DNA of 64,000 bases from a virus (taxonomy: Duplodnaviria > Caudoviricetes): IMG/VR virus record IMGVR_UViG_3300027730_000005. One strand, written 5' to 3'. Positions 30,165 through 50,249 of this stretch are shown one piece after another. Both the position numbers and the translations under genes were made by a program. The first letter of the stretch is position 1. Each line of letters starts with the position of its first letter. The notes under the pieces are model-generated. The model did not search any database and was not told where the DNA came from. It saw nothing but the letters and a program-made list of their open reading frames with translations.

Positions 30165-32183
30165 TCAACGGCTGTTTAGCATCTGTGCCATCAGTGCTCG
30201 ACGTTTCACACGACTTTCACTTACGGTCTTTGGTCCAGTGTCCGTTTTTTTAGGTTCAGGAGTAGACTTAGGAATTGAGCTAGGAGTTCTACGCAAACTG
30301 GCATCACTTTTAGCACGTTGTTTGTCCCAGGCCATGCTCAATCGTTGTGCAGCACTCATACGTGCCTCCGCTACACTTTCGTTCTTGCCTGATAGTCCTG
30401 CACGAGCTTCGGCTTTTGTCATTTTATATTGTGCTTGAAATTCAGCATCAGTTAGCTCTCGTAAATCCGTTATTAATTCTTTAACACGGCCTTCTGAAAT
30501 ACCTTTTTTCTTGGCTTCTTCTACATCATACTTGGGCATGGGTCTTTGACCAGCTCGACCTTTGACTCCACGCTTCTCTGTGCTTGGTGGTTTTGTTGGT
30601 GGAACGATATCACCTTGGTATCTAACCTTAGTTGGTTCTGGCTTCTTTAGTCTGTCGGCTCTGGGCATTACTACAATAGGAGCACCTTCCGCCACACCTT
30701 GCTCACCAACTAAATGTTTGGCGTCTTTGCCCCATTTCTTCCACATCCGTTTACCCCAGGTACTTTGATGGGGACTTGGTTTAACATCGTTGCCTAAACT
30801 TTTAGCAAAAGCATACATCATGGCAGCAACGCCTCGGCTCATATAATCGTCATCCACTTCGGTCCATTCACTTTCCAACCATTGATTACCTTTTTCATCA
30901 GATTTCACAACGAAGTGTGCCCAACCAATTACATTTTGACGATCATGTGCTGTTATAGATAATCCTATATCATTCAGATTACCATGTCCAAGAATTCTAC
31001 CCCTAAATGGACGGGCTTTGAACTCAAAGTCATCCATGCGGACTTTCTCAGTTGGTTCGTTCGAAATGTGTTTGTCGAAAATATCTGGGTGTACTACTTC
31101 TTTTATAGCCTTCTTCATATATTTCTTACGCAATTCTGAGCCTTCCACCACACCTTGCTCTTTCATATACTTCTTACGTAATTTTAAGTCTGATGGCGTT
31201 GCTTTTCTGATTAAATTCAAATATTTGTTTACTGGAATTTCTTTTATCTCAATGGGTTTGATTCCTTCTACTCCAGGAATAGAATGAAACTCTCTGCTAT
31301 TGCCACCTTGAACAAACTGTGGTTTTTCATCTGGACCATTGAATGGTAATTTATGTAGATACACATATTCACCTTTTCTAATCTTGCCACTGAACAAAAC
31401 CATTTGTGGATCATTGGGGAACATACCTGTGTCTGACCCAGCAGTAGTTAGACCCATTGCTATAGCAACTTTAGGGTCGGAGGTAGCATAGATAGCATTT
31501 TGATTACTACCAGCCGCACCACCTGTATCTACCGATTGTCTTGGCTCTAGCATAGGAATCTTTTGTCTTGACCCATGCCAAAGATAGGTATTAATAACTT
31601 TGCCTTCCGCCACACCTTCGTTAAACTCACCATCATCGCCCCATGGTTCTCCATAGATTTTTCCCCAGTCTTGGTTAAGTGGTAAATCATTTTCTATCCA
31701 GTATGCACCTAACTGATCTTTTAACTGTGTGTCGCCCTGAAGGTATGCGTCGAATCCTGGTTTTAGTCCTTTTAAGAAACTATCACGGACTTGTTCGAAA
31801 TGTACTATGTCTGCCGCAGCAACTTCCTGTGTACCGGCTTGTGCTAAGTCTTTTTTGGTCCACCCAGCATCTATTAGATCCTGTATTTCTTCTTGTTTTT
31901 GCTGAGCGAACTCATTAACAAAGTTTTCGGTAACAGCGTAATAGCTTGAAGCAGAATTGCCACCAGGGGCAAATTCATTTAATCGACTTCCTGCTACGCC
32001 TTGATCAACTTTTTTCTCTCGTGCCCTACGTTTGGAATAGTCAGTGTCGGCTGGGTTGTTTTTGTTCTTGGCAGGTGGTCGAGTACCTGCAATTCGTTCT
32101 TCTTCACTCTTGCGACGAGTAAAATAATCATTGGCAGCAGAGCCTTCAACGACTGTGGGCTTGAAAAGATTCTCAATAATCAT
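30165..32183 (-). CDS. Modular polyprotein (ART-like HGS module, GNAT module, basic peptides) with GVAE/G linkers
   Basis: LWHGS…IYATSD; YMSRGVAAMMY; repeated (E/K)QGV(A/V)EG. Confidence 0.7.
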   Translation of the reverse strand: MIIENLFKPTVVEGSAANDYFTRRKSEEERIAGTRPPAKNKNNPADTDYSKRRAREKKVDQGVAGSRLNEFAPGGNSASSYYAVTENFVNEFAQQKQEEIQDLIDAGWTKKDLAQAGTQEVAAADIVHFEQVRDSFLKGLKPGFDAYLQGDTQLKDQLGAYWIENDLPLNQDWGKIYGEPWGDDGEFNEGVAEGKVINTYLWHGSRQKIPMLEPRQSVDTGGAAGSNQNAIYATSDPKVAIAMGLTTAGSDTGMFPNDPQMVLFSGKIRKGEYVYLHKLPFNGPDEKPQFVQGGNSREFHSIPGVEGIKPIEIKEIPVNKYLNLIRKATPSDLKLRKKYMKEQGVVEGSELRKKYMKKAIKEVVHPDIFDKHISNEPTEKVRMDDFEFKARPFRGRILGHGNLNDIGLSITAHDRQNVIGWAHFVVKSDEKGNQWLESEWTEVDDDYMSRGVAAMMYAFAKSLGNDVKPSPHQSTWGKRMWKKWGKDAKHLVGEQGVAEGAPIVVMPRADRLKKPEPTKVRYQGDIVPPTKPPSTEKRGVKGRAGQRPMPKYDVEEAKKKGISEGRVKELITDLRELTDAEFQAQYKMTKAEARAGLSGKNESVAEARMSAAQRLSMAWDKQRAKSDASLRRTPSSIPKSTPEPKKTDTGPKTVSESRVKRRALMAQMLNSR

Positions 32184-32184
32184 A

Positions 32185-32847
32185 TTATGCTTCTTCTAAG
32201 TAATCTTGGCTGGGATCTTGCAACTGTGAACGACGATGTGCTCGAAACATCTCTACTGCCATTTCAGCTTCATCTAAGTCTCTAAACTTGCTGGGCAATA
32301 TACGGCCTTGATGGCGAATTTCAAATCCGCGACGTTGATCTCCCCAACACTCTAGACATGTGCCATCTTCTAATGTGATTGTTTTTACAGGACCAGATTC
32401 GCCTACACTAACTGGACTCATCATGGCAGTACCTGACATCATTGGCTCTTGGGATTCTTCCTGTGACTGTTCGTCGTATTCGTCTTGATCGTCGGCCTTG
32501 GCAGGATTCTTATCTTGAATTTCTTGTTTGGCTTTTTGTTCCAGCTGGTCAAGATATTGTGTGAGATCCTTCTTGACTCGGCTTAACATGTCTTCGTCGA
32601 TCTCAGACATGCGTTCAGCCAATGCACTCCGAACAGGCTGAACACTATCGCCAACCATGTTTTTGCCTAATGGTTTCTTTTGATTATCACTGCCCAATAC
32701 TGGTGATACGTTTTCTGGCTTGAACAATGCAGGCAGTTGCGGCACTGACTTTTGTTGCTTGTTCAGCCCTTTTTTTACCGAGACGGGAGTAATGTCTGAT
32801 TCAATTACGGCCAGACGTTTTAGTATGTTTGCAATATCATAGCTCAT
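32185..32847 (-). CDS. Hypothetical acidic protein, possibly head-associated
   Basis: 220-aa ORF inside the array; VIE/S, VGE/S motifs. Confidence 0.6.
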   Translation of the reverse strand: MSYDIANILKRLAVIESDITPVSVKKGLNKQQKSVPQLPALFKPENVSPVLGSDNQKKPLGKNMVGDSVQPVRSALAERMSEIDEDMLSRVKKDLTQYLDQLEQKAKQEIQDKNPAKADDQDEYDEQSQEESQEPMMSGTAMMSPVSVGESGPVKTITLEDGTCLECWGDQRRGFEIRHQGRILPSKFRDLDEAEMAVEMFRAHRRSQLQDPSQDYLEEA

Positions 32848-33284
32848 GCTCGTTCAACCTTCAAATAACTGTTCAGTTGCCAACGATACTTGCCATGAGC
32901 ACTAAGTCGTTCTGCAATAAAATTAGCAATACCTTGTTGATTTTCTTCGTTGGCTACCGCAAAGCAAGCGTTCAGTACATCTAGCATTTGATTGTTGTTG
33001 GCGTACAATTCTTCCAACATTAATCGAGCACGTGGAATTTTGGTCTGTCCAGAAATCTCTGTGAGTTCACTATAACGTTCTAAACTTCCCGGAGCATACT
33101 CACCTAGATAGCGAATGTATTCTGCTGTGGGATCTAGTGCTGAGTAAGCATCTTCGTAAATGTTTTGAAAGAAATCATGCAATTCTCCAAAGTCGGGACC
33201 TTCTACATTCCAGTGAAATTGATGTGCTTTTAAGTAGTAGGCAAAATTAGTTGCCAGGAGTGTTTTTAAATTGTCCGCGAGCAT
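32844..33284 (-). CDS. dps: Dps ferritin-like DNA protection protein
   Basis: KAHQFHWNVEGPDFGELHDFF…AEYIR…HGKYRWQL; start at MLADNLK. Confidence 0.88.
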   Translation of the reverse strand: MLADNLKTLLATNFAYYLKAHQFHWNVEGPDFGELHDFFQNIYEDAYSALDPTAEYIRYLGEYAPGSLERYSELTEISGQTKIPRARLMLEELYANNNQMLDVLNACFAVANEENQQGIANFIAERLSAHGKYRWQLNSYLKVERA

Positions 33285-33459
33285 GCTTGTTCCTTTTGTA
33301 TTCCTTGGGCGTGTTAGGCGTCGGGTCCGTTGTGTATTTACCACTCAGCATAGAACCGCCTTGTCTTGTTTGTATACCCATTGGTTGAACTAACACTGCC
33401 ATAGAGCCAGTGCTGGAGCTGCCTGCGCTTGCGTCTTCCATTATTTCATGTGCTCTCAT
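33247..33459 (-). CDS. Small protein with CTS-like start (MRAHEIME)
   Basis: Start codons ATGAGAGCA shared with array members. Confidence 0.6.
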   Translation of the reverse strand: MRAHEIMEDASAGSSSTGSMAVLVQPMGIQTRQGGSMLSGKYTTDPTPNTPKEYKRNKHARGQFKNTPGN

Positions 33460-33748
33460 GTTCAATCCTTAACAATGTGTGGTTCACCATGTGTGCGCCC
33501 GGCGGTCCATCTTTGATGCATGTATTGCTCACTTGAATGCGCCCTTGTGCCGGCGGAACCAATTCTCGGCGTAATTCATATTCGCCCGGCGGTGCATAAA
33601 TCTGTATTAGTTCTTCTAGATACTCTTCTCGCCAGACCCATGTACGTTCTGAAAACAATTCTCCGCCTACATATAGTCTATAATTAGGTGACGGTCCGTC
33701 CCAGTCGACTGAAACATCAGCATTGATCAACACAAACTGTGCAGTCAT
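33446..33748 (-). CDS. Hypothetical protein
   Basis: ORF track. Confidence 0.65.
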   Translation of the reverse strand: MTAQFVLINADVSVDWDGPSPNYRLYVGGELFSERTWVWREEYLEELIQIYAPPGEYELRRELVPPAQGRIQVSNTCIKDGPPGAHMVNHTLLRIEHEST

Positions 33749-34038
33749 GTGTCGGATATGTCAGGAGTAACTGCTCGGTGCAGACGATGTCTTGATGCAG
33801 AACTTAAAAGATGATCATCGTCAGAGTCTGGTTCATATCCACCATAACGACTCGGGTCGGCACGATGTTTAATTCCAGTTTTGAGTTTTTCTATTTTGCC
33901 CATTTTAACTGGGGTTTTGTCTGGTGGAGAATTTGGACCACGGCGACCACTGTTAGAATTACCAGCTTCCTCAACATTCTTTTCGCCTAGGAATCCCATA
34001 CCTTCACGTGGGTGATTAAATAGTTCGTATATCAACAT
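33745..34038 (-). CDS. Hypothetical protein (MLIYELF start, VEE/A linker)
   Basis: ORF track. Confidence 0.6.
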   Translation of the reverse strand: MLIYELFNHPREGMGFLGEKNVEEAGNSNSGRRGPNSPPDKTPVKMGKIEKLKTGIKHRADPSRYGGYEPDSDDDHLLSSASRHRLHRAVTPDISDT

Positions 34039-34040
34039 GA

Positions 34041-34367
34041 TTATTCAGTCCAGGGCAGTGGAAGTATTACCACTGGAGGGATAATCTGCAAGTCAATTTG
34101 ATCTTGTACTTGTAACTCTACAGCGTTTTTATCGACACCATTGGTCCAGATCCAGTCAAGCACTTGTTGTTGTGTTAGATCAACGTAAGGTGTAAAAGAT
34201 GCAGAAGCCAACGGAATCTCGCAGGCGGCGAGTGCTGATACCCGGGCGCTGTAGCCGTCTTGTACACCACTGCATGCCCAATAAACTCCAAATACCACAT
34301 CCGGATAACCGTCTGCTTCGGGATAGCATGTCATCTCAGTCACGGTCCAATTGATTGTTGCGGCCAT
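34041..34367 (-). CDS. Small tail fibre-associated-like protein
   Basis: INWTVTEM…DVVFGVYW…FTPYVDLTQQQVLDWI…LPLPW resembles common phage tail accessory proteins. Confidence 0.45.
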   Translation of the reverse strand: MAATINWTVTEMTCYPEADGYPDVVFGVYWACSGVQDGYSARVSALAACEIPLASASFTPYVDLTQQQVLDWIWTNGVDKNAVELQVQDQIDLQIIPPVVILPLPWTE

Positions 34368-34390
34368 TGTAATTTACTTTCTAAAATCTG

Positions 34391-35035
34391 TTATGCCATC
34401 TGCGTGGAAGGAGACAATGCTGCGGCCAGGGCCATACGTTTTTGTCTATGTGCGCCCGAACTTCGTTCATAGTATTGATCTACAATAGCAGCAGCATCTT
34501 CTGCTGTTTTTGCACTCTTCAATCTTTGCCCTGCGTTTGCTTCCTTGTTGTTCAATTCGTACTGTACAAACTCTAATTGGTCTTGTAAGCTAGAATCTTG
34601 TAATGGTTTACGCATTGCATTAGCAAAATCTTGTTGTCGTGATCCGCGCCATTGTGCAATACCATATGCTTTCTCGCCGGGATTCCATGCAGCAGGATTG
34701 AGATTTTGACCTGATTCTGCTTGTAGGTTGGCCACTAGTCCAGCAGCTTGTTCAGGTGACCATCCTTGTTGCATAAAGTAGTCTAGAGCAATTTTTGCAT
34801 TGCCTGCTGTGCCACCACCTGCTCTATTAGATGGTCCAGACATACCAGATCCAGGCAAACGTATTCGAGATCCAGGCTGAATATCATTAGCACTAGCAAA
34901 CTGTGGATTTTGCCACATGATGCCATCTACTGTGGTATCGTAGGACTTTGCTATGTTCGGCAAGGAATCTCCAGATCTCACAGTATAGATATTGTTAGAG
35001 CTAGTGGCTTCAGACAAGAAATCAAATAACTTCAT
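34391..35035 (-). CDS. LysM plus phage tail lysozyme-like muralytic protein with CTS-like start
   Basis: YTVRSGDSL LysM; AAGLVANLQAESG…YGIAQWRGSR. Confidence 0.8.
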   Translation of the reverse strand: MKLFDFLSEATSSNNIYTVRSGDSLPNIAKSYDTTVDGIMWQNPQFASANDIQPGSRIRLPGSGMSGPSNRAGGGTAGNAKIALDYFMQQGWSPEQAAGLVANLQAESGQNLNPAAWNPGEKAYGIAQWRGSRQQDFANAMRKPLQDSSLQDQLEFVQYELNNKEANAGQRLKSAKTAEDAAAIVDQYYERSSGAHRQKRMALAAALSPSTQMA

Positions 35036-35036
35036 A

Positions 35037-35999
35037 TTACCCTTTTAACATGGTAGACATGCGACGCATTTGATCCACGCTGTATTCAAAATTTGATTGT
35101 TTACTAGTGCTTTCTTGAAGTTTTGCCGGTGCTGTGCCGCCTGCTGGTATACCTAATTTTGCTCTACCTTGATCAATTACAGAAGGCTGTGTTGCTATTC
35201 TTTGACTAACTGACTGATTAGTTGGATTTGCTGGTGCCGCTGGTTTTGTTGGAGTAGCAGCCTGACCCGTCATATTAGCGGGCGGCGCCTTGGCGTAGCT
35301 GCTACGCTCTTGAGCCGAGGCTGGTCCTCTGAGGTTAGCTGCAGGGCCGCCAGGTTTTTGTGCAGACAAAATAGCGCCTGCTGTGGTAGGCCCAATAATA
35401 CCGTCAGCCGTTAAACCGTTAGCTGTTTGAAATTTCTTAATAGCATCAACATTTGGTTTATTATTCGTTAATAGTCCCATTCTAGATGCATACGCAGCGA
35501 TTGCAGGGGACATTGATTTATTAGCAGCTGGCTTAGCTGGACTTGCTGCTTGTGTAGGTGCTGCTGGTGTAGATGCGGCAGCATTGACTGCCGCTGCTTG
35601 TCCCATACTCATATCTGTAGCACTTGCAGCAGTATCGGCAGCATTGACTGCCGCTGCTTGTCCCATACTCATATCTGTAGCACTTGCAGCAGTATCGGCA
35701 GCATTGACTGCACCTGCTTGTCCCATACTCATATCTGTAGCACCTGCAACAGCGTCAGCCTTGTCAGCGGCAGCCTGTGCTGCTGCCTCTTCACCGGGAT
35801 TACCTACTCCAGTTGCAGAACTTGTTGCTGCTGGTTTACCTTTATTTGGTGCTCGCATGGCAATGTAAGGGTCATTGATGTCGGGTTTGCCGCCACCGCG
35901 GGTGTACCATGCTTGATCTTCTGGACTCATGGCTGCAAATTTGGCAGCATCGGCACCTTGGTACGGATTTGCTTCTCTTAAAAATTCTATTGATCTCAT
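35037..35999 (-). CDS. Ala-rich repeat protein with peptidoglycan-binding domain and CTS-like start
   Basis: MRSIEFLRE; AIKKFQTANGLTADGIIGPTT. Confidence 0.75.
   Translation of the reverse strand: MRSIEFLREANPYQGADAAKFAAMSPEDQAWYTRGGGKPDINDPYIAMRAPNKGKPAATSSATGVGNPGEEAAAQAAADKADAVAGATDMSMGQAGAVNAADTAASATDMSMGQAAAVNAADTAASATDMSMGQAAAVNAAASTPAAPTQAASPAKPAANKSMSPAIAAYASRMGLLTNNKPNVDAIKKFQTANGLTADGIIGPTTAGAILSAQKPGGPAANLRGPASAQERSSYAKAPPANMTGQAATPTKPAAPANPTNQSVSQRIATQPSVIDQGRAKLGIPAGGTAPAKLQESTSKQSNFEYSVDQMRRMSTMLKG
35581..35760. repeat. Three tandem 60-bp (20-aa) coding repeats
   Basis: Two identical copies plus one diverged copy (ATDMSMGQAxAVNAADTAAS). Confidence 0.92.
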
Positions 36000-36037
36000 G
36001 TGATATTCCTTTATGAATGACCTATGCTTTATTTATT

Positions 36038-36679
36038 CTATTTGCCCTGTGCTGCCAATCTTGCACCATTGTTAAAACTGTTGCTGTGACTGGCAGCATT
36101 TCTGTTGCCACGTGCTTTTGACCATGCATAACCAGCTCTGTGCCCAGAACAATCTTTGGTGCAAGGCGACCCCAAAAATGATAATTCATCCAACTCTTGT
36201 TTTCCAGTGTATCGTTTAATTATGGACATTGATTCCTGATCATTCAACAGAGATGCTAATCCAGGATGTAGTGGGCGTGGCCAGTCGCCAAACTCTACCC
36301 ATTCAGATCCTTGAGTTTCCCAATTTAACATTGGTTTAAATTCGTGAGCTACTATGGCTAAAAAATTGTAGTATCTAAATCCCGACGGATGCCTGAACAC
36401 ATACAACGGGATCAGTTTAAGTGGGCCGTTATACCCTGCTTCTTCTTTGACTTCTCGTTTGACAGCATGTGCTGGATTTTCACCAGCGTCGATTGCACCG
36501 CCCCATGTTCCCCAGGTGTTAGGTTGCTCCACTTGTGATGATCTATGAGCTATACAAATCCGATTGGTATCGGCTGCCAGGAACAAACAACCAGCAGCTT
36601 GCTTGCCCCAGAATCCTGTTTTCTCCAAAGCATCACGATGTTCTTTATCTGACTCAGTCACAAATTCGGTTGCTCTCAT
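36038..36679 (-). CDS. NUDIX hydrolase with CTS-like start and small C-terminal module
   Basis: GGAIDAGENPAHAVKREVKEEAG Nudix box; MRATEFVTE; LDE/LSFLGSPC…. Confidence 0.8.
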   Translation of the reverse strand: MRATEFVTESDKEHRDALEKTGFWGKQAAGCLFLAADTNRICIAHRSSQVEQPNTWGTWGGAIDAGENPAHAVKREVKEEAGYNGPLKLIPLYVFRHPSGFRYYNFLAIVAHEFKPMLNWETQGSEWVEFGDWPRPLHPGLASLLNDQESMSIIKRYTGKQELDELSFLGSPCTKDCSGHRAGYAWSKARGNRNAASHSNSFNNGARLAAQGK

Positions 36680-37155
36680 TTGGCATCTCCAAAGATTGGT
36701 CCACCGACATACTGACCATTCTGACTTAACACACCATTGCGTAGATTGTTGATAATGTTATCAGTGATGTTTCTGCGACGGAAATGCGGCAAAAAAATAT
36801 GTGTTTCTACAGGACGATCGCCCTGCTCTGCTTGGATAGCATACATCCTGTGACGCCCGTCATGATCACGCACCTTGGCTTCTAAATTGAAATCATCGTT
36901 CTCCCAAGCTTCAGGAACTGCTATGGTTAAAAACGGTGCTCCAAACCCTTTATCATTGATCTGTCGGCGTAGATATTGTATAGTTTCTTTTTCGTCAGGA
37001 GAGTTAACATCCAAGGGCAAGCTGAGTTTGAGGAATGTGCTGGGTCGCATGACTGTGCGTAGACCAAAGTAATCTACATCAGCATTGTGCGGAACAGCAC
37101 CGAGACCTTGCCGATTGTCTATCTTTAGTTCCGTTATGAATTCCTTTGATCTCAT
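36676..37155 (-). CDS. ParB/Srx-like domain protein with CTS-like start
   Basis: MRSKEFITE; HDGRHRMYA. Confidence 0.55.
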   Translation of the reverse strand: MRSKEFITELKIDNRQGLGAVPHNADVDYFGLRTVMRPSTFLKLSLPLDVNSPDEKETIQYLRRQINDKGFGAPFLTIAVPEAWENDDFNLEAKVRDHDGRHRMYAIQAEQGDRPVETHIFLPHFRRRNITDNIINNLRNGVLSQNGQYVGGPIFGDAK

Positions 37156-37355
37156 GTGTCTATCCTGTGTACATTGGTCACTATGCTGTCTTTGCCGTAT
37201 TGAGCTTGCAGTAATAATCGAGCCATGGCAGGTGACTTGGCAAATATAGCCACATCTATACTGGTAGTATACGAAGGATTTTTGACCCGCACAGACGCAC
37301 TATACACATGAAATCCCGGAAGCAAGTCTTCACAGAGAAATTCTGTTGCTCTCAT
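37152..37355 (-). CDS. Small protein with CTS-like start
   Basis: MRATEFLCE. Confidence 0.65.
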   Translation of the reverse strand: MRATEFLCEDLLPGFHVYSASVRVKNPSYTTSIDVAIFAKSPAMARLLLQAQYGKDSIVTNVHRIDT

Positions 37356-39064
37356 CAGCAGTTCCACTTTCTCAACGCTAATGCTTTGCGTGTGGGTTTG
37401 CCATTGGGTTTTTTCATTGGCCCTTTGACTCCGCCCATCCTGGCACAGAATGATTTACGACGCTTGGCTGCTTTTGATCCTGGCTTGAGTTTGCTGGGCT
37501 TGGTAGTAACTGCCATTTGTAATTTTGAGCCTGGATTCTCTCTACGATAGCTAGCAACACCTTTGGCATTGAGACCGCCCTTTTTGCTCTTACCTGCGCT
37601 TCTACGCCAAGCTGCTGTTTCAAGAATGATTTCTTCATCGGTGAAGAAGTTGAATATGTCTTCAGTAAGACCACGATCAGCCATGGCCTGTTCAAAGTCA
37701 TCAAATATTGCATGGGCTTGTTCTAGGCTGTATACGCTTTCTGTTACACCTTCCTCTACACCCGACTGCATCTGTTGTTTGACTGCACGAGCAACATCTC
37801 CCGCCAATGCGCCAGGGTCATTATCGCCACCGTAGTTGAGCACACTCATGATTGCATTGTGAATCACACGGTCATCTGCACGACGAGCCATATTGGGATA
37901 CATGCGCTCAAACTCAGCATACACTTGATCAGCTAGGTCATCGTATTCACCGTTGAAGCCTTCATCCAGGCCATCTGCTTGTACAGCCCCTTCGCCGTCG
38001 GCATCAAAAGCTACCATTTCTACTTTGGGCCACATACGTGCAGGCACATACAGAATACCCGAAGTTTCGTCATGATCGATCTGGTCGCCAAAGCGAGCCA
38101 TTACTGCATTATATGCCCGTTCACTGTTAACGCTAAAACCCACAGTGTCCGTATCGTCAATACCGCTGTATCCGCCTTCCGCCACACCTTGCTTCTTGAG
38201 AATATCCAGTGCGTGTTTTTCCATCTGTTTTTTGGTAATAGGTTTACCGGGTGCTTCCTTACCTTTGAAATAATCAGAACCTTTTTTATCTCTTGAACCA
38301 TAGGTGCTGTGACTTACTTTGCCATCACGACCGGGTTGTGGTGCTGATTTGTCCATTTCATTCAAGCCTTCCGCCACACCTTGCTCACTTGCTTTGGCTT
38401 TGGCTTCGGCCCTGGTACGACTGTATCCCCGTGCTGTTGCTTCTCGTTCTTGGTTAGGATATATAGATATTGCAAACATTTTTCCATCTTTAACAAAGTA
38501 CCAATCTGTTGGATCTAGATCGTGTCTTTCGTCATCACCGCGATTGAACGCTCCCCTTACTCCGCGGAAAGGCCTGCCTCTGCCTTCCGCCACACTTTCT
38601 TTTTTGGCAGTCTTTGCAGCATCTTTCCAGGCCTGTGCTGTGGGGGCCTTGGGGCTGTCGGCATCTCTACTGGTACCGGCCTTCTTGCGCTTGTTTACAT
38701 TGTAGTATAACCCTTTGTTCTCCTCTGAGATACTTTCGTTAGGCACACAGTTTCTTACCTGCTTGCCAGTCACAGCTGACTTTTTTGTGCCTTCTGCATG
38801 TTTTCCTGGCCAGCACTTGGTGTAACCATTGCTATCTTTCTGACCCTTTTTGATCTCCATGATATTGCCGTGTGTTTTGCACATACCACAGTCTTCACAC
38901 ACCATTTCCATCACAACACTTTCGTTGTGTTTCTTCTTGCCAGCACAATGAGCACGTTGCGAAAAGCCTTTTGGATGAGAGCAATTGATACTGCTTTTGT
39001 ATTTTTGACTCCAGCCTTCATCTAATTTTTTGATTTTTCCAGTTATAAATTCATTTGATTTCAT
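37355..39064 (-). CDS. Polyprotein of short modules separated by GVAE/G, LDE/G, ILE/T linkers; C-terminal DUF6321-like module
   Basis: Three nucleotide-level copies of the GVAEG repeat; C-terminal GGLNAKG…RRKSFCARM…WNC. Confidence 0.7.
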   Translation of the reverse strand: MKSNEFITGKIKKLDEGWSQKYKSSINCSHPKGFSQRAHCAGKKKHNESVVMEMVCEDCGMCKTHGNIMEIKKGQKDSNGYTKCWPGKHAEGTKKSAVTGKQVRNCVPNESISEENKGLYYNVNKRKKAGTSRDADSPKAPTAQAWKDAAKTAKKESVAEGRGRPFRGVRGAFNRGDDERHDLDPTDWYFVKDGKMFAISIYPNQEREATARGYSRTRAEAKAKASEQGVAEGLNEMDKSAPQPGRDGKVSHSTYGSRDKKGSDYFKGKEAPGKPITKKQMEKHALDILKKQGVAEGGYSGIDDTDTVGFSVNSERAYNAVMARFGDQIDHDETSGILYVPARMWPKVEMVAFDADGEGAVQADGLDEGFNGEYDDLADQVYAEFERMYPNMARRADDRVIHNAIMSVLNYGGDNDPGALAGDVARAVKQQMQSGVEEGVTESVYSLEQAHAIFDDFEQAMADRGLTEDIFNFFTDEEIILETAAWRRSAGKSKKGGLNAKGVASYRRENPGSKLQMAVTTKPSKLKPGSKAAKRRKSFCARMGGVKGPMKKPNGKPTRKALALRKWNC

Positions 39065-39088
39065 TTAGTTCACCTTTTTCTAACAGTT

Positions 39089-40174
39089 TCATTTGTTTTT
39101 TGCTCTTCCAGCTTTCATATTGGCCAACCAGTGTGCCATGCGTTGTTTTTCACCAGAACTGTTCTTGGCAGTTTTTCTCAAACTACTTACACTGGCTTTG
39201 GTATTTACTCCCACACGTTTGGCCAGACCCTTGCGTCCAGGATTACGGCCGTCAGCAAAGTTTTCGTCAACCGAAGACTCATTGGATGTTGCAACAGGTT
39301 GTTTGGCCTTGTAGATATCTTCCCATTTGTCTGAAATAGCATTCTTTAATTCCAGCGTGGATTTAAAATTATTGTCTTGCATATACTTAATTATCCACAC
39401 AGCACTAGCACGGTCTCCTGAATCAGGCTTGCGAGCATTGCTTAGATCCACGCTGAGATTTTGATCTTCTGATGGATTACCATAGTACCGCATGGTCTTT
39501 AACGCACGTTTTGCTCTATCACTTAGATGTGCTTCGTCGCTCTTGGTAATTAACTCAATCCAGGGCTTTACAAAGTCTGTGGGCTTGCGGGACGATCCAG
39601 CTGGTGTTGGTCCACGTAATACATCACGGGATTGGCCTGGTATCTGTGCTCGACGTTTGTTCAGCAATCGCCATGCTGCTTCGTCTGTGTAGAAAAACAC
39701 AGGTAAGCCTTGTTGCTTGGCTGTGATCAGGATCTGTCGTGTTTCTGGACTGCGATATTCATCTTGTTCTTTGAGCAACACATGAACTTCAGTCACAGGA
39801 GTGATTGGAATAGTGGGCTCTTTGCTAAACACACGGTCTTCTGCTTCTCTGGTTCTTGTACCATTGCTGTGTAACCATGCACGGTCCCAGTAGTCAATGG
39901 GTTTCACAATGTATCGAGAGTTAAACCAGTCACCATTGAGTTTGAACATCACAGCGCCTGATCCCACCCAGCGATGATAATCGCCAGTTATTGTTCGTGT
40001 CAAACTAAGAAAGTATGGATATCCAGCAGGAGCATACTGTTCTTCGCTGCGATTGCCGGTCACGCTGGCCAATTCAAAGTTGCCGGATTGCAGTATTCTT
40101 AACCCAGCTCTGATACTGGTGTAATGAAACAATACATCAGTTGCTCGTTCAATTAAAAATTCCGTTGCTCTCAT
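39089..40174 (-). CDS. ADP-ribosyltransferase-fold candidate with CTS-like start and basic C-terminal module
   Basis: MRATEFLIE; LFHYTS…YFLSLTR; VDE/NFADG…. Confidence 0.5.
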   Translation of the reverse strand: MRATEFLIERATDVLFHYTSIRAGLRILQSGNFELASVTGNRSEEQYAPAGYPYFLSLTRTITGDYHRWVGSGAVMFKLNGDWFNSRYIVKPIDYWDRAWLHSNGTRTREAEDRVFSKEPTIPITPVTEVHVLLKEQDEYRSPETRQILITAKQQGLPVFFYTDEAAWRLLNKRRAQIPGQSRDVLRGPTPAGSSRKPTDFVKPWIELITKSDEAHLSDRAKRALKTMRYYGNPSEDQNLSVDLSNARKPDSGDRASAVWIIKYMQDNNFKSTLELKNAISDKWEDIYKAKQPVATSNESSVDENFADGRNPGRKGLAKRVGVNTKASVSSLRKTAKNSSGEKQRMAHWLANMKAGRAKNK

Positions 40175-40539
40175 TATACATACCTTGCTAGTTCATCTTC
40201 ACCTAAATCTTGTATGCGATTGGGCGGGATTTTAGTTGTGGAGAAGTACCATCCGTGGTCATATGTCAATGGAATACCCGTCACATCAATTTGCAACAAT
40301 GTCAATGGATCATCGCTACCCTCTGACTTGGCGTACATCCATCCACCGACCATACTTAGTTCTCTTTGTAACTTGACCTTATCACCTTCGTCTACAACCA
40401 TAAATGCTTTGCCATCATACGGATCTAGCCCAGCATATAGAATTTCTTCTGCGTTTTCAGTACTGGTAATATGGTACGCAGTTTTAAACTCATGGTCATG
40501 ATGTGTCCTTGATTCAGTGACAAATTCAGTTGCTCTCAT
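40174..40539 (-). CDS. Small ADP-ribosyltransferase-fold candidate with CTS-like start
   Basis: MRATEFVTE; YHITSTEN..EIL..GLDP…LLQID…IPP..I. Confidence 0.5.
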   Translation of the reverse strand: MRATEFVTESRTHHDHEFKTAYHITSTENAEEILYAGLDPYDGKAFMVVDEGDKVKLQRELSMVGGWMYAKSEGSDDPLTLLQIDVTGIPLTYDHGWYFSTTKIPPNRIQDLGEDELARYV

Positions 40540-43500
40540 TTGGGTTCCCATTGCATACTTTTACTACCTTTAACAGTAGGAGTAAACCCTTGACCTCTGT
40601 AGAACTTGGTTAATTTACTTTGACTCACTTGTCCTTTGTCCCAAGGAAACAGTGTCAAGCTGATGCCATCTTCTCTTGCCATGGCTTGTAGTTCTTGCAT
40701 GGCACGTGACCCAACACCTTGACGTAGCGGATATGCTTGAATCCATTTGACTTCAACTGCGCCGCGCTTGCTAAAGCTAGGAACAAGTTCAAACATAGCA
40801 AACTGTTGGTCATCGCCTTTGCCCCAGACCATAACGTGATTGTTCTGCATGGTGTATGGATACTTTGCGTAGACTCGTTCAATCCATGCCTGTGCAGCAT
40901 CATTGTTGCCTAGTTTGATTCTTATTGGCTCTTCTTCTTCGGCTACATCTTTCATTAGATGTTTAGCATCGCCGGACTTCTTCCAAGCATCCCACATGGC
41001 CTTGCCAGGCGGCAATTGATTTCTACTTGGTACAATAGTGTTACCCAACATTCTCACATACGCATAGATGTTACGTGCTATACCGCGGCCTTGATATTCA
41101 AGTTTCAAGCTGGTAACTGCTGACACTAGACCATTTTTGCTGGGTCTAAATTTTGCAAGACCTATCTGTTGATAATTGTCGTCTAGCACTTTGACTTGAA
41201 AATATTCTTTACCATTTATTTCAATCCCAGTGGCACGATATGTCAGCCCATCAAAAATTTGGGTGTCGTTGAACGCTGGATTGAAAACATCTGGATTGAT
41301 AGTTTCATTTAAGTTGTTGGCCATTACTTGTGGTAAGAAACTGGCGGCAATGTGTTGGCAAGTGTTAAAAATGTCAGCATTATCAGTGACCTGCAGATTG
41401 AATGGATAGTCTGTGGTAGGATGCTGTGTGGGGTCTTGCCACCCAGCATAACATTTTTCAATACCAAAGTCAGCTAACAAATCAGTGCAACTCTCTCCAT
41501 ACCTCTCATCCATGTCATGCACACAAGGACTCAATGTAGTGACCATGATGGCATTGGGACCAATACGACCGTGACGTTTGAGATGCTGGTCTATGGCCAC
41601 TCGTTCAGCATGGCGTCGTGTTCCGTTGAGCCCAGGCAAGTTGATAGCATAAGTGTGATTGTTTTTGTTATCAATCAAACAAGCAGCCACACGTCCATAC
41701 TTTTCTGGATCAGTCTCATGACCACGATGTATCATGTTGATGCACTTTTTCAGCACATTATCTAGTTTACCAAGTTTTGTGATCTCTTGGCTTTCATCCA
41801 TATCTTCTTCACCAGGCTCGTCTAGGTCGTGTATGGGCAAGCCAAGGCGTTTGAGCTTGTGACTGTACATGTTTTCTAGCTCTTCGCTGCCAAACGCCAA
41901 CACAGTATGCGGCGGGCCTTGATTGTAATGAGACTTGTCGGCTTGATCAAGATCGCTAATGTCTTGTCCCAACTGATACCAATCTTGGGTGTCGCTCACA
42001 TCCACTTTGATTGTGCCAGCGGGCATTTTGGGAGGTGTTTCAGGACCAGTTGGTTTTTGATTGCCTAGAGCATCCAGGTCACGACGTAATCGTTGTTCTA
42101 ACACTGTGATGTTTTCTGACACTGATTGAGAACGTAGTCTCACTGAGAAGTTACTGGCATCCACTTCTGGATTTGCCTGCATTGCAGTAGCCACCCATTC
42201 TTGACCTCGACGCCAGGCTTCTGTTTGATTTGCTGCCTGTATTACAAATACTGGTTGATTGGAAGATCTATTGTATACTTCCCACTGTGTTTGTGCCATT
42301 GGGATATCTAATTCAACGTCTTCTACTCCTGGAATTGGGGTGGATGTGTATTGGTATTGTTGTTGGCTTGCTGCAACACCCATCTCTGGTACTACTGTAA
42401 CTCCAGCCTGCATACGCCCAGGATTACTACGCATCCAGTTTATGGCCACACGGTTGGCATCACTCTGTACATTGCCTACTCCCGAGAAGCGATGTATTTC
42501 TTGACCGTCCGGATTCAAGATCAACCAGTTGCCAGTGAATGTTTGCTGACCTTGACCCGGACGAGTTAAAGTTTGCGGTATGCCAACGTCAACAATGCCA
42601 CCTTGTGCTGCATCTGAATTATTGCCCTGGCGGGTACGAACACCGTACAATTCAGGAGCTTCGCCACGCATGCCTAACGCCAAACGTGCTTCTTGTTCAG
42701 CTTCGGGTCTACTGGTATTGCTCAACTCTCTCACAGTAGAGTTGTCGCTGATTCTATAGATTTCCCATGGACCTGGGCCAGTGGGCACCAAGTTGCGTGG
42801 CTGTCCTTCGCGTGGTACATTTTGTGTGCTAACGAATGCATTTGATGATCGCGCTGGCACTGTCGACGCCCGGAACAGGTGAGAACGGCCAGCGGTGTTG
42901 CCAAATATATCTGGTCTTGCTTCTCCAGCAGCTCTTATAGCGTTTAGCTCAGATGACGCACGAATTTGTATTTCTTGCCCAGGATTACCTTGTGGGCTTA
43001 CATACCAGATTGGTTGTTCAGTCTGTTGTGGTTCAATTTCACGCACTTCAATGTCAGTTATCATACGAGAATTTTGTTCACGACCTTGAGTTATGAACTG
43101 TTCAGCAGCCTCACGACTTGGGAATCTACGCAACACATTGTTGTCAGACTGGCCAGGAGCTCTAGCAAAGCGGTTCATGTCATTCATCCAAATGCCCCAG
43201 TTGCCTGTACTTGGTTGTGCGGCAGATTGTGGGCCAGGTTGTTGCTGATCACCACCACGGGCAACCACAGTGCCAGCACGATCAACTAAACTAAAGTCAT
43301 GTGGATTATTTTCCCCTGAAACAAACTGTCTAAACTTTTGTACAGCGTCTTCTTGACTTGATGCTGTGATCGATGATCTATTGTAACCGGCTCGAGCATC
43401 ATAAACGCTATAGGACAATGATGGCTTCGGATCCTGATATGGTCGTAGCGGTTTTGCCTGTAGAGTGTTCCGTGCGCTGGCCCAGTCTGGGTAGTTGCCT

Positions 43501-46500
43501 GGTTCTATAGCCTTGGCGATGGCTTCTTCCTTGCTAGAAGCAACAATTTCAATGCTGGCAAAATATCCAGGACGACTCACATCCCACCAATATTTTTGTC
43601 CCTTTGGTGTCTTGCCTTTGGCAAGATTACGGGCGAGATTCTGTTGCTCTAGTTCTTGAAAAGTTGCTTTTCTAAAGTCTTTGATGGCCTGTTGCGTTTC
43701 TTTGCTTAGTTTGTCGCCGACTTCTTTGCTATTGCCCTGCAACGATACCATGTACTTGGCAAACTCTTGAATCATATCACCATATTCGTCCTTGGTACCG
43801 TTAGGATTCAACAGTTTGTACAGCTTCTTGAGATATTCTTGGCGATACTTTTCAGGATCCATCGCAGCGTCCAGGGCCACAGTAAATCGTAATAGGGTAT
43901 CTTCAATCTTGCTGAAGTTTGAATCCAACCAGTCGCCACCCGGACTCCGGAATTCAATGTATCCTGTCTTGGTATTGATACTGGTATATTTTTCTGTAGT
44001 GCCTGTGTGAATGGCCTTGGTGGCAATGTCTTCCATGTGCTCACGCATCTTGTCCATGACCTGCGGAGCAATATCAGGATTGCGTTTCAGCATGGTTTTA
44101 ATTTTGCCAATTGCTGACTTGGCATAGTTATTGCCTGAACGTCCAAACAGTTCTAGCACATATTCATCGCCCATGAGCAGGGCCAGTTTGACATAGTCCA
44201 GTTTGTCAAGACTGTAGTTGGGTACTGAAATGTTGATATGCAAGCCAGTGCTGTCATTGGTATAGCAACCAGACTTGTCTGCCCAAGCCTTGACCTTGTT
44301 TAGATCTGAAATCATTTCATCTATGGGCATAGGCGGACTAACAAATTCTAAACCTTCGTCGCCAGGGTTGTCGCCTTCTAAACTGCCGTCAGGTTCCACA
44401 ACATAGGTACCTGCTTCACGACGGCCGCCATGGTAATTTCTACTGGCGTTCACAGGTTTACCCATGTAACTGGAGAATTCATCAGCCACTTGATCTATAT
44501 CCATGTCACCGTCGTTGCCCTCATTAGCGTCAGTGTAATAGGGCCATTCAATATCAAAGTTGCTTTCGATGTCACTCATGGTTTGATATTTGTCATCCAA
44601 GAAACTGCCTTCATCGTACTCGTCTCGTTGTTCTTCTGCAAACGCTTCAAATGCATCATTGAAGACACGGCCTTGATCTTCAAAAGCTTCCAGCACAAAC
44701 TGTTCTTGTAATTCATCAAGTCTGGCACTCAGCAGTTGAGAGAAGTCTTCGCTCTCTTGTGGCAAGTCAGGATTGGCATCCATGATTTCGTCACGAGCTT
44801 GTAGCATGGCTTCATCACGATCAAACAAGTCATTAACGTTGACAAAGTCACGCATGTAATCTACTCCATCGCGTGTCCAAGCTTCAGCAGTTTGTTCCTG
44901 CTGCCATTCCTCGTACTCGTTTTGTATTTCTTCCATTAGGTCATCTACTGCACGGCGTCCATTGTGGTCACCGTCATGGAAAAAGTCTCGAATGTCACTG
45001 AAGCTTCTGGTACGTTGATCCTGATCGTAGTCTGGTTCCCAGTCAGGTTCTTGTTCATCGACCCCAACATCGGGCACAATCATTTCAAATTCCATGCCTG
45101 CCTGTGCGCCTGTTTGTGCTGCTAACTGACGCAGATTGGTGCTGGTCATCTTGATTTCAAACAGATCTTTCTCTTTGAACTCTCGCAACATCTTGTTTAA
45201 ACCGGCTGTGAGTAATGCAGGATGACCTTGTGAATCTGTTTGTAATCCAAGTTTGTTGGCTTCCTTGCCCACAGCACCTGGACGCACATCTCGGGTCAAG
45301 GCCATGACAAATCTTGGATCGCGTGCCTGTGCCTTTGTGGGTATGTATCCTGACGCTTCTTCCAGTGTGACCCCATCAAACATTTCAGGCTGTTCTTCAG
45401 CCCACTGTCGCATGATACGGCCAGCCATGGCGTTGGCTTGGTCTTCCCAAGGGCTACCAGTTTCACCAGCATCTATAGGCAGGGGATTTCTTTCATCCTG
45501 CTGACGATGTGTCATCTCATGGGCCATGGTGCGAAGTATATCCAACACATGGCGTCCCGCGGTGGCCAAGATCAGTGTGTTGCTTTCTGGTTCGTATTGA
45601 CCAAAGCTACCGTTCTCTTGACTCCATTCTGGTGTTGTTTCCAAACGCAATCTAGGTGGATTCTCTAATTTAAGTTTATCTACACAACTGGCATAGAAAC
45701 GATGTAGGATCTTTTTCAAATGGTCAAGTTCTACACTTTCATCCACTTGTTCTGATTCAGTACCAGCAGGGTGATCTTGGCCAGCATACGCAGTACCTGG
45801 ATACCAGTAATCACGCATGCCGTAATTGACTTTCTTTCTGGCAGCAGGCTTACGATTTAAACTCAACTCACGATCTTGTATTGCTGTCTTGGCATCTTTT
45901 AATTTGCCAATGCAACCCATATTTCTCAACAATTTAAATGCAATGTTCTCGCAGCCAAACTCACCATTCTTTTCCAGGCCAGTTTGGCGCATTGTTTTGA
46001 TCTTGTCCCACAGCTGATTCACAGCATCTGCATTGCCGGACTTGATAGCTGAATGTATTCTGGCATCAAGATCAGCTGTTTTGTGTTGTACACAAGAGTC
46101 ATCTATGCTAGCACGACGGCGCTGTGGAACTTGTACCCAGTCACCATTCTTTACGCTGTAAATGCCTTGACTCACATGCTTTTGATCACTGGGCTGCACA
46201 TACAGTTCCACTGGAACGCCAGCAATCTTTATGTCATGCTCGGCATTATACTGATATTTTTTTGCATTGAACAGTTCTTGATACACAGGATCGTCAGGCA
46301 TGTCCACCACAAGGTGTAGATCAATGTCTGAATGGCGAGTATAAGAATAGGCAGCATTGCTACCTGATATGGTAATGTCCTGAATGTTGAGATCATCAAC
46401 ACCCAGGAATTCTTGAAAATTTGACGCAATTGCCAGCAACTTGTCACGCACATCAGGTAACAAGTGCTCGTCTGACCCCCACAAACGGGGGTTCAAACGT

Positions 46501-46556
46501 TGATGGAATTTTACAGCATCGGCGAGATTAAAGTTGTCAAGATCATGGAAATTCAT
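40536..46556 (-). CDS. 2006-aa polyvalent protein (Pol-beta NTase, zincin, amidoligase, repeats, deaminase, two GNATs)
   Basis: GSNA…SDIDLH; AHEMTH; EFEM/EPDGSL/LEFVSP/TGLH; HAE…LSPC…C; YQGRGIA; RQGVGS. Confidence 0.8.
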   Translation of the reverse strand: MNFHDLDNFNLADAVKFHQRLNPRLWGSDEHLLPDVRDKLLAIASNFQEFLGVDDLNIQDITISGSNAAYSYTRHSDIDLHLVVDMPDDPVYQELFNAKKYQYNAEHDIKIAGVPVELYVQPSDQKHVSQGIYSVKNGDWVQVPQRRRASIDDSCVQHKTADLDARIHSAIKSGNADAVNQLWDKIKTMRQTGLEKNGEFGCENIAFKLLRNMGCIGKLKDAKTAIQDRELSLNRKPAARKKVNYGMRDYWYPGTAYAGQDHPAGTESEQVDESVELDHLKKILHRFYASCVDKLKLENPPRLRLETTPEWSQENGSFGQYEPESNTLILATAGRHVLDILRTMAHEMTHRQQDERNPLPIDAGETGSPWEDQANAMAGRIMRQWAEEQPEMFDGVTLEEASGYIPTKAQARDPRFVMALTRDVRPGAVGKEANKLGLQTDSQGHPALLTAGLNKMLREFKEKDLFEIKMTSTNLRQLAAQTGAQAGMEFEMIVPDVGVDEQEPDWEPDYDQDQRTRSFSDIRDFFHDGDHNGRRAVDDLMEEIQNEYEEWQQEQTAEAWTRDGVDYMRDFVNVNDLFDRDEAMLQARDEIMDANPDLPQESEDFSQLLSARLDELQEQFVLEAFEDQGRVFNDAFEAFAEEQRDEYDEGSFLDDKYQTMSDIESNFDIEWPYYTDANEGNDGDMDIDQVADEFSSYMGKPVNASRNYHGGRREAGTYVVEPDGSLEGDNPGDEGLEFVSPPMPIDEMISDLNKVKAWADKSGCYTNDSTGLHINISVPNYSLDKLDYVKLALLMGDEYVLELFGRSGNNYAKSAIGKIKTMLKRNPDIAPQVMDKMREHMEDIATKAIHTGTTEKYTSINTKTGYIEFRSPGGDWLDSNFSKIEDTLLRFTVALDAAMDPEKYRQEYLKKLYKLLNPNGTKDEYGDMIQEFAKYMVSLQGNSKEVGDKLSKETQQAIKDFRKATFQELEQQNLARNLAKGKTPKGQKYWWDVSRPGYFASIEIVASSKEEAIAKAIEPGNYPDWASARNTLQAKPLRPYQDPKPSLSYSVYDARAGYNRSSITASSQEDAVQKFRQFVSGENNPHDFSLVDRAGTVVARGGDQQQPGPQSAAQPSTGNWGIWMNDMNRFARAPGQSDNNVLRRFPSREAAEQFITQGREQNSRMITDIEVREIEPQQTEQPIWYVSPQGNPGQEIQIRASSELNAIRAAGEARPDIFGNTAGRSHLFRASTVPARSSNAFVSTQNVPREGQPRNLVPTGPGPWEIYRISDNSTVRELSNTSRPEAEQEARLALGMRGEAPELYGVRTRQGNNSDAAQGGIVDVGIPQTLTRPGQGQQTFTGNWLILNPDGQEIHRFSGVGNVQSDANRVAINWMRSNPGRMQAGVTVVPEMGVAASQQQYQYTSTPIPGVEDVELDIPMAQTQWEVYNRSSNQPVFVIQAANQTEAWRRGQEWVATAMQANPEVDASNFSVRLRSQSVSENITVLEQRLRRDLDALGNQKPTGPETPPKMPAGTIKVDVSDTQDWYQLGQDISDLDQADKSHYNQGPPHTVLAFGSEELENMYSHKLKRLGLPIHDLDEPGEEDMDESQEITKLGKLDNVLKKCINMIHRGHETDPEKYGRVAACLIDNKNNHTYAINLPGLNGTRRHAERVAIDQHLKRHGRIGPNAIMVTTLSPCVHDMDERYGESCTDLLADFGIEKCYAGWQDPTQHPTTDYPFNLQVTDNADIFNTCQHIAASFLPQVMANNLNETINPDVFNPAFNDTQIFDGLTYRATGIEINGKEYFQVKVLDDNYQQIGLAKFRPSKNGLVSAVTSLKLEYQGRGIARNIYAYVRMLGNTIVPSRNQLPPGKAMWDAWKKSGDAKHLMKDVAEEEEPIRIKLGNNDAAQAWIERVYAKYPYTMQNNHVMVWGKGDDQQFAMFELVPSFSKRGAVEVKWIQAYPLRQGVGSRAMQELQAMAREDGISLTLFPWDKGQVSQSKLTKFYRGQGFTPTVKGSKSMQWEPK

Positions 46557-49556: not shown

Positions 49557-50249
49557 TTATGGTCGTTTTTGCACTTGTACGGTTTTACGAGTTAGCCCAG
49601 GGCATAGCATTGCCAGCATGGTAATATGCTTGAGATCATTGTGTTCTACAAAATAATGTTCCCGGCTCCATGATGAATGCGGTTTTGTTCTACCCCATCG
49701 GTAACCTTGTAGTATAGTATCAGTGAACCATTTTTCAGTAACAGGACTGGCCACGAGATCTGGAGCCTGATGGCTGATCCAATTCCACACTGCTTGTTTT
49801 TTATCTGTGGACAGCTTCTTTTCTTTAAGATAAGTTCTGTAAGGATATTTGGGTTGATTGTTTAACATGACAACATCCCTGGAATACGCAAGTACTGCTT
49901 GTTTCATAGTGGATTTTGTTGGATAATTCCTGTACATTGTCTCAACGTCTTTGATGTCATTGGTGTACACATGAAATCTATTTTGCCCATAGGTGCGATG
50001 AATGTATGCACTGCGAAGATTTTCTAATACGTCCACTGCATGCATTATGTTTTGTTTGGTCAATTCGTCAGTCACTGGGTGTCCAACTGACAAATTATAT
50101 TGATCACGTCTATGTAACCGTTCCAGGATCTTTGTGAGAGAAAGATTGTTCAACAGCCACGCACCATCAATATCAAAACTTATTGCATATTCATACTTTC
50201 CAAAATAAAGTGATCCGCGTGGGTCACACTGTAAATAGGGTAGTGACAT
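49557..50249 (-). CDS. Hypothetical protein
   Basis: 230-aa ORF. Confidence 0.7.
   Translation of the reverse strand: MSLPYLQCDPRGSLYFGKYEYAISFDIDGAWLLNNLSLTKILERLHRRDQYNLSVGHPVTDELTKQNIMHAVDVLENLRSAYIHRTYGQNRFHVYTNDIKDVETMYRNYPTKSTMKQAVLAYSRDVVMLNNQPKYPYRTYLKEKKLSTDKKQAVWNWISHQAPDLVASPVTEKWFTDTILQGYRWGRTKPHSSWSREHYFVEHNDLKHITMLAMLCPGLTRKTVQVQKRP

Follow-up and report, generated by a model that had tools for sequence, protein, structure and literature searches.

The window analyzed here (a 64-kb stretch of the virus record IMGVR_UViG_3300027730_000005 in IMG/VR) carries an island of ten minus-strand genes whose diverse products begin with nearly the same tag of nine residues, with the consensus M-R-A-T-E-F-[ILV]-x-E. 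We consider it probable that this shared N-terminus is the lineage's version of the T4 capsid-targeting leader, cut after its Glu by a gp21-type protease and borne by exchangeable cargo that is packaged and delivered. The observations behind this reading are the tag itself, its restriction to the island, its likeness to T4 leaders, the presence of the protease in relatives, and the register in which tag ends align with junctions inside large proteins. The phage is an uncultured jumbo myophage of the Rak2/XacN1/Atu_ph07-like type, related to T4, from a lineage of freshwater jumbo phages. Its family-B DNA polymerase is nearest to those of Sinorhizobium phage Phosso (49%) and Agrobacterium phage Atu_ph07 (46%), followed by Rak2-like enterobacterial jumbo phages. 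IMG/VR contig 3300027741_000021 (here G002) is the closest sequence found, with 76 to 86% DNA identity over the island and 96% identity of the polymerase protein; megablast against GenBank phages returned no match to the island.

The tag is confined to one gene island

A six-frame scan of all 64 kb with the regular expression M[RK]..[ED][FILM]..[EG], along the lines suggested with the original prediction, gave eight matches and none outside the island: all are starts of minus-strand open reading frames (ORFs) of 67 to 569 residues, within 5.5 kb (35035 to 40539). Two further, degenerate copies, at 33459 and 34038, bring the number of tagged genes to ten, in a region (30.1 to 46.6 kb) where every gene lies on the minus strand and packing is close. 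Nine of these starts had been listed in the original prediction, and all nine are present on the minus strand where it placed them; the copy at 34038 is the tenth. At 33459 the start (MRAHEIME) departs from the pattern by one residue, and its place in the family is borne out by homologues with a canonical tag (MRAREFIKE or MRAKEFVRE; in G002, MKVHEIME). Shuffled sequences contained 0 matches to the shared DNA pattern, and reversed sequences gave 0 to 1 tag matches per genome.

At the DNA level, four starts had been thought to share one sequence, and ATGAGAGCAACNGAATTT does occur exactly four times (36679, 37355, 40174, and 40539), with a near-copy carrying two mismatches at 35999. The shared 5′ end might be kept as nucleic acid, i.e., as a translation-initiation region or a recombination cassette, with no targeting role for the peptide. 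Codon usage gives this idea some footing: in tags that were not chosen by DNA pattern, AGA makes up 89% of second codons and GCA 72% of third codons, versus 32% (of Arg codons) and 46% in gene bodies, and the GVAEG linkers discussed below are encoded by an identical 15-nucleotide (nt) core with a rare GCG codon, in relatives as well. However, codons 5, 6, and 9 show ordinary usage; the four window copies cover all four bases at the synonymous N position of ATGAGAGCAACNGAATTT and hence all four Thr codons; the residue pattern persists in diverged variants in which the bases do not; and the tag end matches internal [ILV]-x-E junctions, away from any 5′ end. A role in recombination would also be compatible with targeting, a combination that has been proposed for the T-even ip loci. 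We give this alternative little credence, a purely nucleic-acid role for the shared 5′ end being unlikely.

Tag ends are in register with internal junctions of large proteins

The strongest new evidence that cleavage of the gp21 kind, as in T4, may occur at the tag end comes from sequence comparison with fusion proteins. Nine of the ten window tags end in an [ILV]-x-Glu-type site, and this Glu is in register with a junction Glu inside larger proteins: modules that stand alone behind a tag in other contigs occur within fusion proteins of the window, and the [ILV]-x-E of the tag falls on an internal [ILV]-x-E. With a slash placed after the aligned Glu, MRATEFINE/EINPD corresponds to NNLNE/TINPD in p2006 and to KAIKE/VVHPD in p672, MRATEFITE/EHEPTRIK to KDVAE/EEEPIRIK in p2006, MRATEFIDE/NFADG (the tail of p361 as a gene of its own) to SSVDE/NFADG in p361, MRATEFITE/SAAW to EIILE/TAAW in p569, and MRATEFITE/IKKGQKD to GNIME/IKKGQKD in p569 (site positions in Table 1). 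The last two modules of p2006, both GNAT-like, start right behind LNE and VAE, and both are stand-alone tagged genes elsewhere, in exact register.

The same register recurs in other members. The Cys-rich end of the NUDIX protein p213 lies behind LDE, and in G002 this C-terminal module is a tagged gene of 67 residues that lacks NUDIX (it also stands alone in contigs L007 and L120). Homologues of p121 are either tagged stand-alone genes or C-terminal modules behind INE, LAE, or VWE junctions; one of these motifs is present in seven of eight fusion homologues, the eighth (P0142, a short partial match only) having none. AlphaFold2 models leave the corresponding parts disordered: in p121 (predicted local distance difference test [pLDDT], 87.9), residues 1 to 9, precisely the tag, score below 50, and in p361 (80.5) the disordered parts are residues 1 to 7, in the tag, and 295 to 312, in the linker with VDE.

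Because the [ILV]-x-Glu at the tag end, which is the site type of T4 gp21, aligns with internal [ILV]-x-Glu sites, p569, p672, and p2006 look like protease-cut polyproteins, built of the same modules as the tagged cargo. The sites are present at two to three times expectation in p569 (14 versus 4.9) and p672 (17 versus 8.3). In p569, the Glu9 of the tag is changed to Gly, and the next site is LDE at Glu16; in p214, the sole [ILV]xE site is that of the tag.

The identical 15-nt core GGTGTGGCGGAAGGC, with its rare GCG Ala codon, encodes three of the GVAEG linkers on the minus strand (38366-38380, 38174-38188, and 31602-31616, in p569 and p672) and recurs in contigs L004, L011, L016, L020, L043, L062, L082, and L083; one possible role is that of a joint at which modules are exchanged by recombination.

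Likeness to T4 leaders and head genes of relatives

The T4 sequence confirms that ipII and ipIII start with MKTYQEFIAE, as the original prediction claimed, and the core E-F-[ILV]-x-E is common to these starts and the window consensus; ipI starts with MKTFKEF...ITE and Alt with MELITELFDE. As a positive control, the same kind of expression applied to ORF starts of the whole T4 genome recovered gp21, gp22, gp24, Alt, ipII, ipIII, gp2, and inh, together with the hypothetical 61.1 and one probable false match. Intermediate forms exist in relatives: homologues of p121 bear either the 9-residue tag or a 10-residue, T4-like form, and in the cultured relative RsoM2USA at least seven genes start with M.TFK[EQ][FY]L.E, counting gene 385 (MQTFKQFLSE), a homologue of p159 that lies 4 kb from the prohead protease gene.

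Since no head gene lies within the 64-kb window, the evidence for a protease comes from relatives, of which the closest is G002. There, Portal_T4, Peptidase_S77 (T4 gp21), and Gp23 are consecutive, and the capsid protein has LLE-G sites within an N-terminal extension of ~53 residues. Each of the five large IMG/VR contigs bearing tagged genes has Peptidase_S77, as do RsoM2USA, Atu_ph07, Phosso, and SCTP-2, such that all nine relatives tested (G002 among them) were positive; all tag-bearing relatives encode a portal, a gp21 protease, and a gp23 capsid protein of the T4 type. A predicted complex of the G002 prohead protease with p121 scored 0.00, which weighs neither way. In Atu_ph07 and Phosso, which have the closest cultured polymerases, no tagged genes flank the DNA polymerase gene, and the SCTP-2 homologue of p361 begins with MNLNE, i.e., without a tag.

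The T4 gene 61.1 (18966-19130; 54 residues, annotated as hypothetical) begins with MKTFKEFIKE, a near-perfect capsid-targeting sequence. Also in T4 (65416-67490; L154), ipII and ipIII directly adjoin e (lysozyme) and nudE (NUDIX), and the lysozyme and NUDIX genes of the window sit in the tagged array and are themselves tagged; this proximity may reflect an old neighborhood or coincidence.

Virion evidence in relatives

Proteins with such N-termini have been detected in virions. RsoM2USA ORF89, a protein of 253 residues and 28.56 kDa with the tag MKTFKQFLSE, is among ten abundant virion bands assigned from liquid chromatography-tandem mass spectrometry and predicted masses, and ORF86 and ORF257 were also detected in virions (PMC8504454); the latter two lie within the two clusters of tagged genes of this phage. 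In phage PA5oct, EST35_0150 (MKINDIITE) is a virion protein detected by mass spectrometry and is encoded between portal and protease.

In an alternative reading, the proteins would be loaded and trimmed but act as assembly or DNA-condensing parts, or be degraded and expelled like scaffold fragments, rather than serve as effectors in the host. T4 assembly proteins (gp21, gp22, gp24, and inh) have the same kind of N-terminus, and the small, very basic members (p70, p67, and the DUF6321 and NFADG tails) would suit neutralization of DNA charge. Most of the cargo, however, is enzymatic (lysozyme, NUDIX, ART fold [ADP-ribosyltransferase], and GNAT) and has no plausible part to play in assembly, the set differs between near-identical phages, which is unexpected for structural parts, and the closest analogues, T4 Alt and IPI to IPIII, are injected (PMC12373910, PMC5512222). 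We therefore regard this alternative as rather unlikely.

Another reading, in which the tag leads its proteins not to the capsid but, for instance, into export or degradation or to a chaperone or unfoldase like the phage ClpB-like ATPase, strikes us as highly improbable. The window does contain a ClpB-like gene, and in one protein encoded elsewhere (contig L004, 3861-4493, minus strand; also L051, 1968, minus strand) MRATEFVTE is directly followed by a twin-arginine translocation (TAT) export signal (Pfam TAT_signal, 4.6e-5). The tag, however, has nine residues, is acidic and amphipathic, and lacks a hydrophobic core, and it is hence unlike a secretion signal; moreover, it matches most closely the capsid-targeting sequence of T4, which was defined by experiment, and a tagged RsoM2USA protein is found in virions. 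The sequence of the TAT-bearing protein suggests either that this cargo, once delivered, is exported again into the periplasm or that the tag has another use.

Proposed mechanism and points against it

Under the capsid-targeting reading, we infer docking, cleavage, packaging, and ejection, as well as all targets, as follows. The tagged proteins would be made late, and the tag would attach them to the scaffolding core while the prohead assembles. A gp21-type prohead protease would cut after the Glu of [ILV]-x-E, removing the tag, and would cut like sites between modules, in which case p569, p672, and probably p2006 would be polyproteins. The freed modules would remain in the head with the DNA and exit together with it at infection, upon which lysozyme and peptidoglycan-binding modules would act on the cell wall, while ART-fold, NUDIX, ParB-like, GNAT, and deaminase modules would hit host targets ahead of phage gene expression. 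ATAAATA, the core of T4 late promoters, shows no enrichment across the window, with 11 copies against an expectation of 13.4, and the copies near gene starts lie too close to the ATG for interpretation.

Several observations weigh against this account. Within the window, p2006 lacks a canonical tag and is not enriched overall in [ILV]xE (21 found, 24.8 expected), a motif that is, in any case, short; the AGA bias at codon 2 of the tags (see above) points to some selection at the DNA level or to common descent; and there is the missing head gene. Several cargo proteins are far larger than the T4 internal proteins, and the exit of folded enzymes of 30 to 60 kDa through the tail is questionable. 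Elsewhere, a TAT signal right behind the tag ill suits simple delivery to the cytoplasm, and the second of two tag-like starts in PA5oct is not flagged as a virion protein, such that this phage is weak evidence either way. Finally, the virion-packed chitinase of XacN1 (ORF272) has no T4-like tag; thus, not every packaged enzyme of the wider clade uses one.

We tentatively extend the capsid-targeting reading to a broader proposal, whose chance we put a little short of even: tag and prohead-protease site would together form a combinatorial grammar, in which any module bounded by [ILV]-x-Glu is either a tagged gene or a bead in a polyprotein, and modules switch between these states by recombination at DNA-identical cassettes (ATGAGAGCAAC.GAATTT and GGTGTGGCGGAAGGC). 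If so, polyvalent proteins would be built and then processed by the head protease rather than by peptidases of their own, and thousands of injected effectors of uncultured phages would be predictable from sequence alone.

Spread and plasticity of tagged genes

We searched IMG/VR with an exact DNA pattern of 17 bases; the figures cover the matches listed, among which 119 are exact and 112 of these fall at ORF starts. The loci that were fetched encode at least 123 unique tagged proteins in at least 43 cargo clusters; GH19, NUDIX, and ParB-like proteins are among them, as are many orphans. A complete relative of 344 kb has ~7 tagged genes, which are dispersed. For p361 alone, there are 2470 metagenomic homologues, and the tag is present in 83 of the best 120 of these 2470; some homologues are headed by the variants MFIHELFE and MLVRDLFE, and other C-terminal modules are frequent in the family.

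The island has changed between the window and G002 despite their 96% identical DNA polymerases: tagged modules have been gained, lost, or fused, a pattern also known from the T-even ip loci. G002 lacks p121, p67, the NUDIX domain of p213, and the three middle modules of p569, its p672 is mostly replaced, and it has another tagged gene instead. The homologue of p97 in G002 begins with MRLYEFFDHPRE.

The commonest tagged genes among the IMG/VR matches listed form an adjacent pair of 124 to 134 residues (largest cluster, 29 members), which the window lacks. Contigs with this pair include L003, L006, L014, L022, L023, L052, L054, L056, L077, L091, and L098, and the pair may represent conserved head components of the lineage.

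Relation to known systems

According to the literature on T-even phages (PMC3012670, PMC12373910, and PMC5694885; Repoila 1994 as cited there), the internal proteins are diverse, share only the capsid-targeting leader, are cut by gp21, and are injected, and the leader has already been used to package GFP, a nuclease, and further foreign proteins (Mullaney and Black 1996, as cited by PMC5694885). The original prediction had proposed a plug-and-play virion payload system of an undescribed kind. The payload is the best-supported explanation and is strengthened by the comparative evidence; its undescribed status falls away, because the principle of T4 internal proteins is on record and their leader is in plug-and-play packaging use. 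Novelty lies in the lineage, in a cargo of large enzymes, and in the connection with polyproteins. Our literature search found no paper on an MRATEF-type tag or on the equivalence of tag and junction, and a review of jumbo phages (PMC7824862) does not mention capsid-targeting leaders.

With T4 IPI, IPII, and IPIII, the window array shares a short tag with the E-F-[ILV]-x-E core on unrelated proteins, a gp21-type site at the tag end, a clustered and variable locus beside (here including) lysozyme and NUDIX genes, and a T4-type portal, protease, and capsid protein (here in relatives). In contrast, its tag has 9 residues rather than 10 to 19, with the consensus MRATEF, and occurs in at least 10 genes of a single island as well as in thousands of metagenomic proteins, known here from sequence; whereas the T4 proteins are small (8 to 21 kDa), nonenzymatic restriction inhibitors, the window cargo consists mostly of large enzymes (120 to 570 residues) plus polyproteins in which modules are chained. 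Cargo size and enzyme content thus make the array a variant of the T4 internal-protein system, not a plain member. T4 Alt, a packaged, gp21-processed, and injected ART, finds a counterpart in p361 and p121 as tagged, predicted ART-fold proteins, although these resemble DarT/Tpt1-type ARTs by fold search rather than the R-S-E Alt/VIP2 clade, and no sequence homology is shown.

Polyvalent proteins are predicted to accompany the DNA into the host, and release of their domains by peptidase domains of their own has been proposed (Iyer et al. 2017, PMC5512222). Like them, p2006, p672, and p569 string together effector-type domains (NTase, zincin-like, amidoligase, deaminase, and GNAT): p2006 has an amidoligase, a deaminase, and two GNAT-like modules, and p672 and p569 are multimodular. 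Unlike them, the window proteins carry a prohead-protease site at their junctions, their modules also occur as stand-alone tagged genes, and no MuF or portal-associated N-terminal domain was found in them; by Pfam, p2006 has neither MuF nor a peptidase domain, and an HExxH motif is visible in its sequence. Cleavage of many head proteins, and a requirement of propeptides for incorporation, are described for SPN3US and similar giant phages of the phiKZ-like kind (PMC5694885). There, too, a gp21-related protease cuts after the Glu of a short motif, but the propeptides are 80 to 130 residues long, and share no single tag, and the motif is A/S/G-x-E.

If the tag works as in T4, a motif of nine residues marks proteins that abundant uncultured jumbo phages deliver before gene expression, the class that holds anti-defense and host-takeover functions; more than 2,400 public metagenomic relatives exist for the single cargo protein p361. 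The tag would then also be a second natural packaging tag for engineered delivery of proteins in phage heads, and the register match offers a concrete account, open to test, of the cutting of multi-enzyme polyvalent proteins into functional units.

Tagged genes and their cargo

The original prediction held that the domains behind the tag are unrelated; Pfam bears this out for the LysM-lysozyme, peptidoglycan-binding, and NUDIX proteins, while the ART folds come from models and the ParB-like domain of p159 is a probable assignment and a lead only, based on its DGRHR motif and on Atlas features that point to ParB_N clusters (0.93). Neither Pfam nor a PDB sequence search returned anything for p159, and Pfam has no match for p361, p121, p67, p97, or p100.

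AlphaFold2 models and Foldseek searches suggest that p361 and p121 are ART-fold proteins, with matches that are weak overall (E-values of 1.9e-4 to 3e-3; template modeling [TM] scores of 0.27 to 0.52). The best for p121 is KptA (E = 1.9e-4; TM, 0.51), with DUF4433 also matched, and residues 12 to 165 of p361 give consistent but weak structural matches to DarT, Tpt1, DUF2971, and DUF4433 (E of ~3e-3). Invariant in the p361 family are H17 Y18, S57, R60, and E110-x-E112.

Table 1. Genes of the tagged island and other window genes named in the text
Product	Coordinates	Strand	N-terminal tag	Content	[ILV]-x-E sites
p2006	40536..46556	-		Polyvalent protein directly upstream of the array; Pfam Amidoligase_2, dCMP_cyt_deam_1	LNE, Glu1751 (codon 41304-41306); VAE, Glu1873 (codon 40938-40940)
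p121	40174..40539	-	MRATEFVTE	Predicted minimal ART-fold domain like the NAD lobe of KptA/Tpt1	
p361	39089..40174	-	MRATEFLIE	Predicted ART fold (~residues 12-165), helical domain, linker, basic NFADG tail	VDE, Glu304 (codon 39263-39265)
p569	37355..39064	-	MKSNEFITG	Short modules joined by [ILV]-x-E sites; three GVAEG linkers; basic DUF6321 end (Pfam 1.7e-21)	Glu16, 70, 160, 232, 296, 438, 482
p67	37152..37355	-	MRATEFLCE	58-residue basic orphan, isoelectric point (pI) 9.3, no family	
p159	36676..37155	-	MRSKEFITE	Probable ParB/sulfiredoxin-fold domain, DGRHR motif	
p213	36038..36679	-	MRATEFVTE	NUDIX hydrolase (Pfam 4.8e-13; phrog_1198), LDE junction, small Cys-rich module	LDE, Glu165 (codon 36185-36187)
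p320	35037..35999	-	MRSIEFLRE	Ala-rich repeats, peptidoglycan-binding domain (Pfam PG_binding_1 5e-6)	
p214	34391..35035	-	MKLFDFLSE	LysM (Pfam 1.5e-10), phage tail-type lysozyme (Pfam Phage_lysozyme2 1.1e-31)	
p97	33745..34038	-	MLIYELFNHPRE (degenerate)	Basic orphan	
p70	33247..33459	-	MRAHEIME (variant)	Small Gly/Ser-rich basic protein, pI 10.4	
Dps/ferritin-like	32844-33284	-	Untagged	Pfam Ferritin 3.1e-20	
p672	30165..32183	-		Polyprotein-like, downstream end of the island; GVAEG/GVVEG linkers; GNAT-like module behind IKE	IKE, Glu362 (codon 31098-31100)
DNA polymerase	26173-28839			Family B	
ClpB-like	50224-52491				

The core of p361 (~290 residues) belongs to no Pfam family despite its many metagenomic homologues, and in various phages it is joined to GH19, GNAT, NTase-ParB, or hydrolase modules or lies behind a second spacer ending in L-x-E. 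In p320, three near-identical tandem units of ~20 Ala-rich residues (35550-35800, minus strand; ending in ...TDMSMGQAAAVNA) precede the peptidoglycan-binding domain. An untagged Dps/ferritin-like gene lies in mid-island and is kept in G002.

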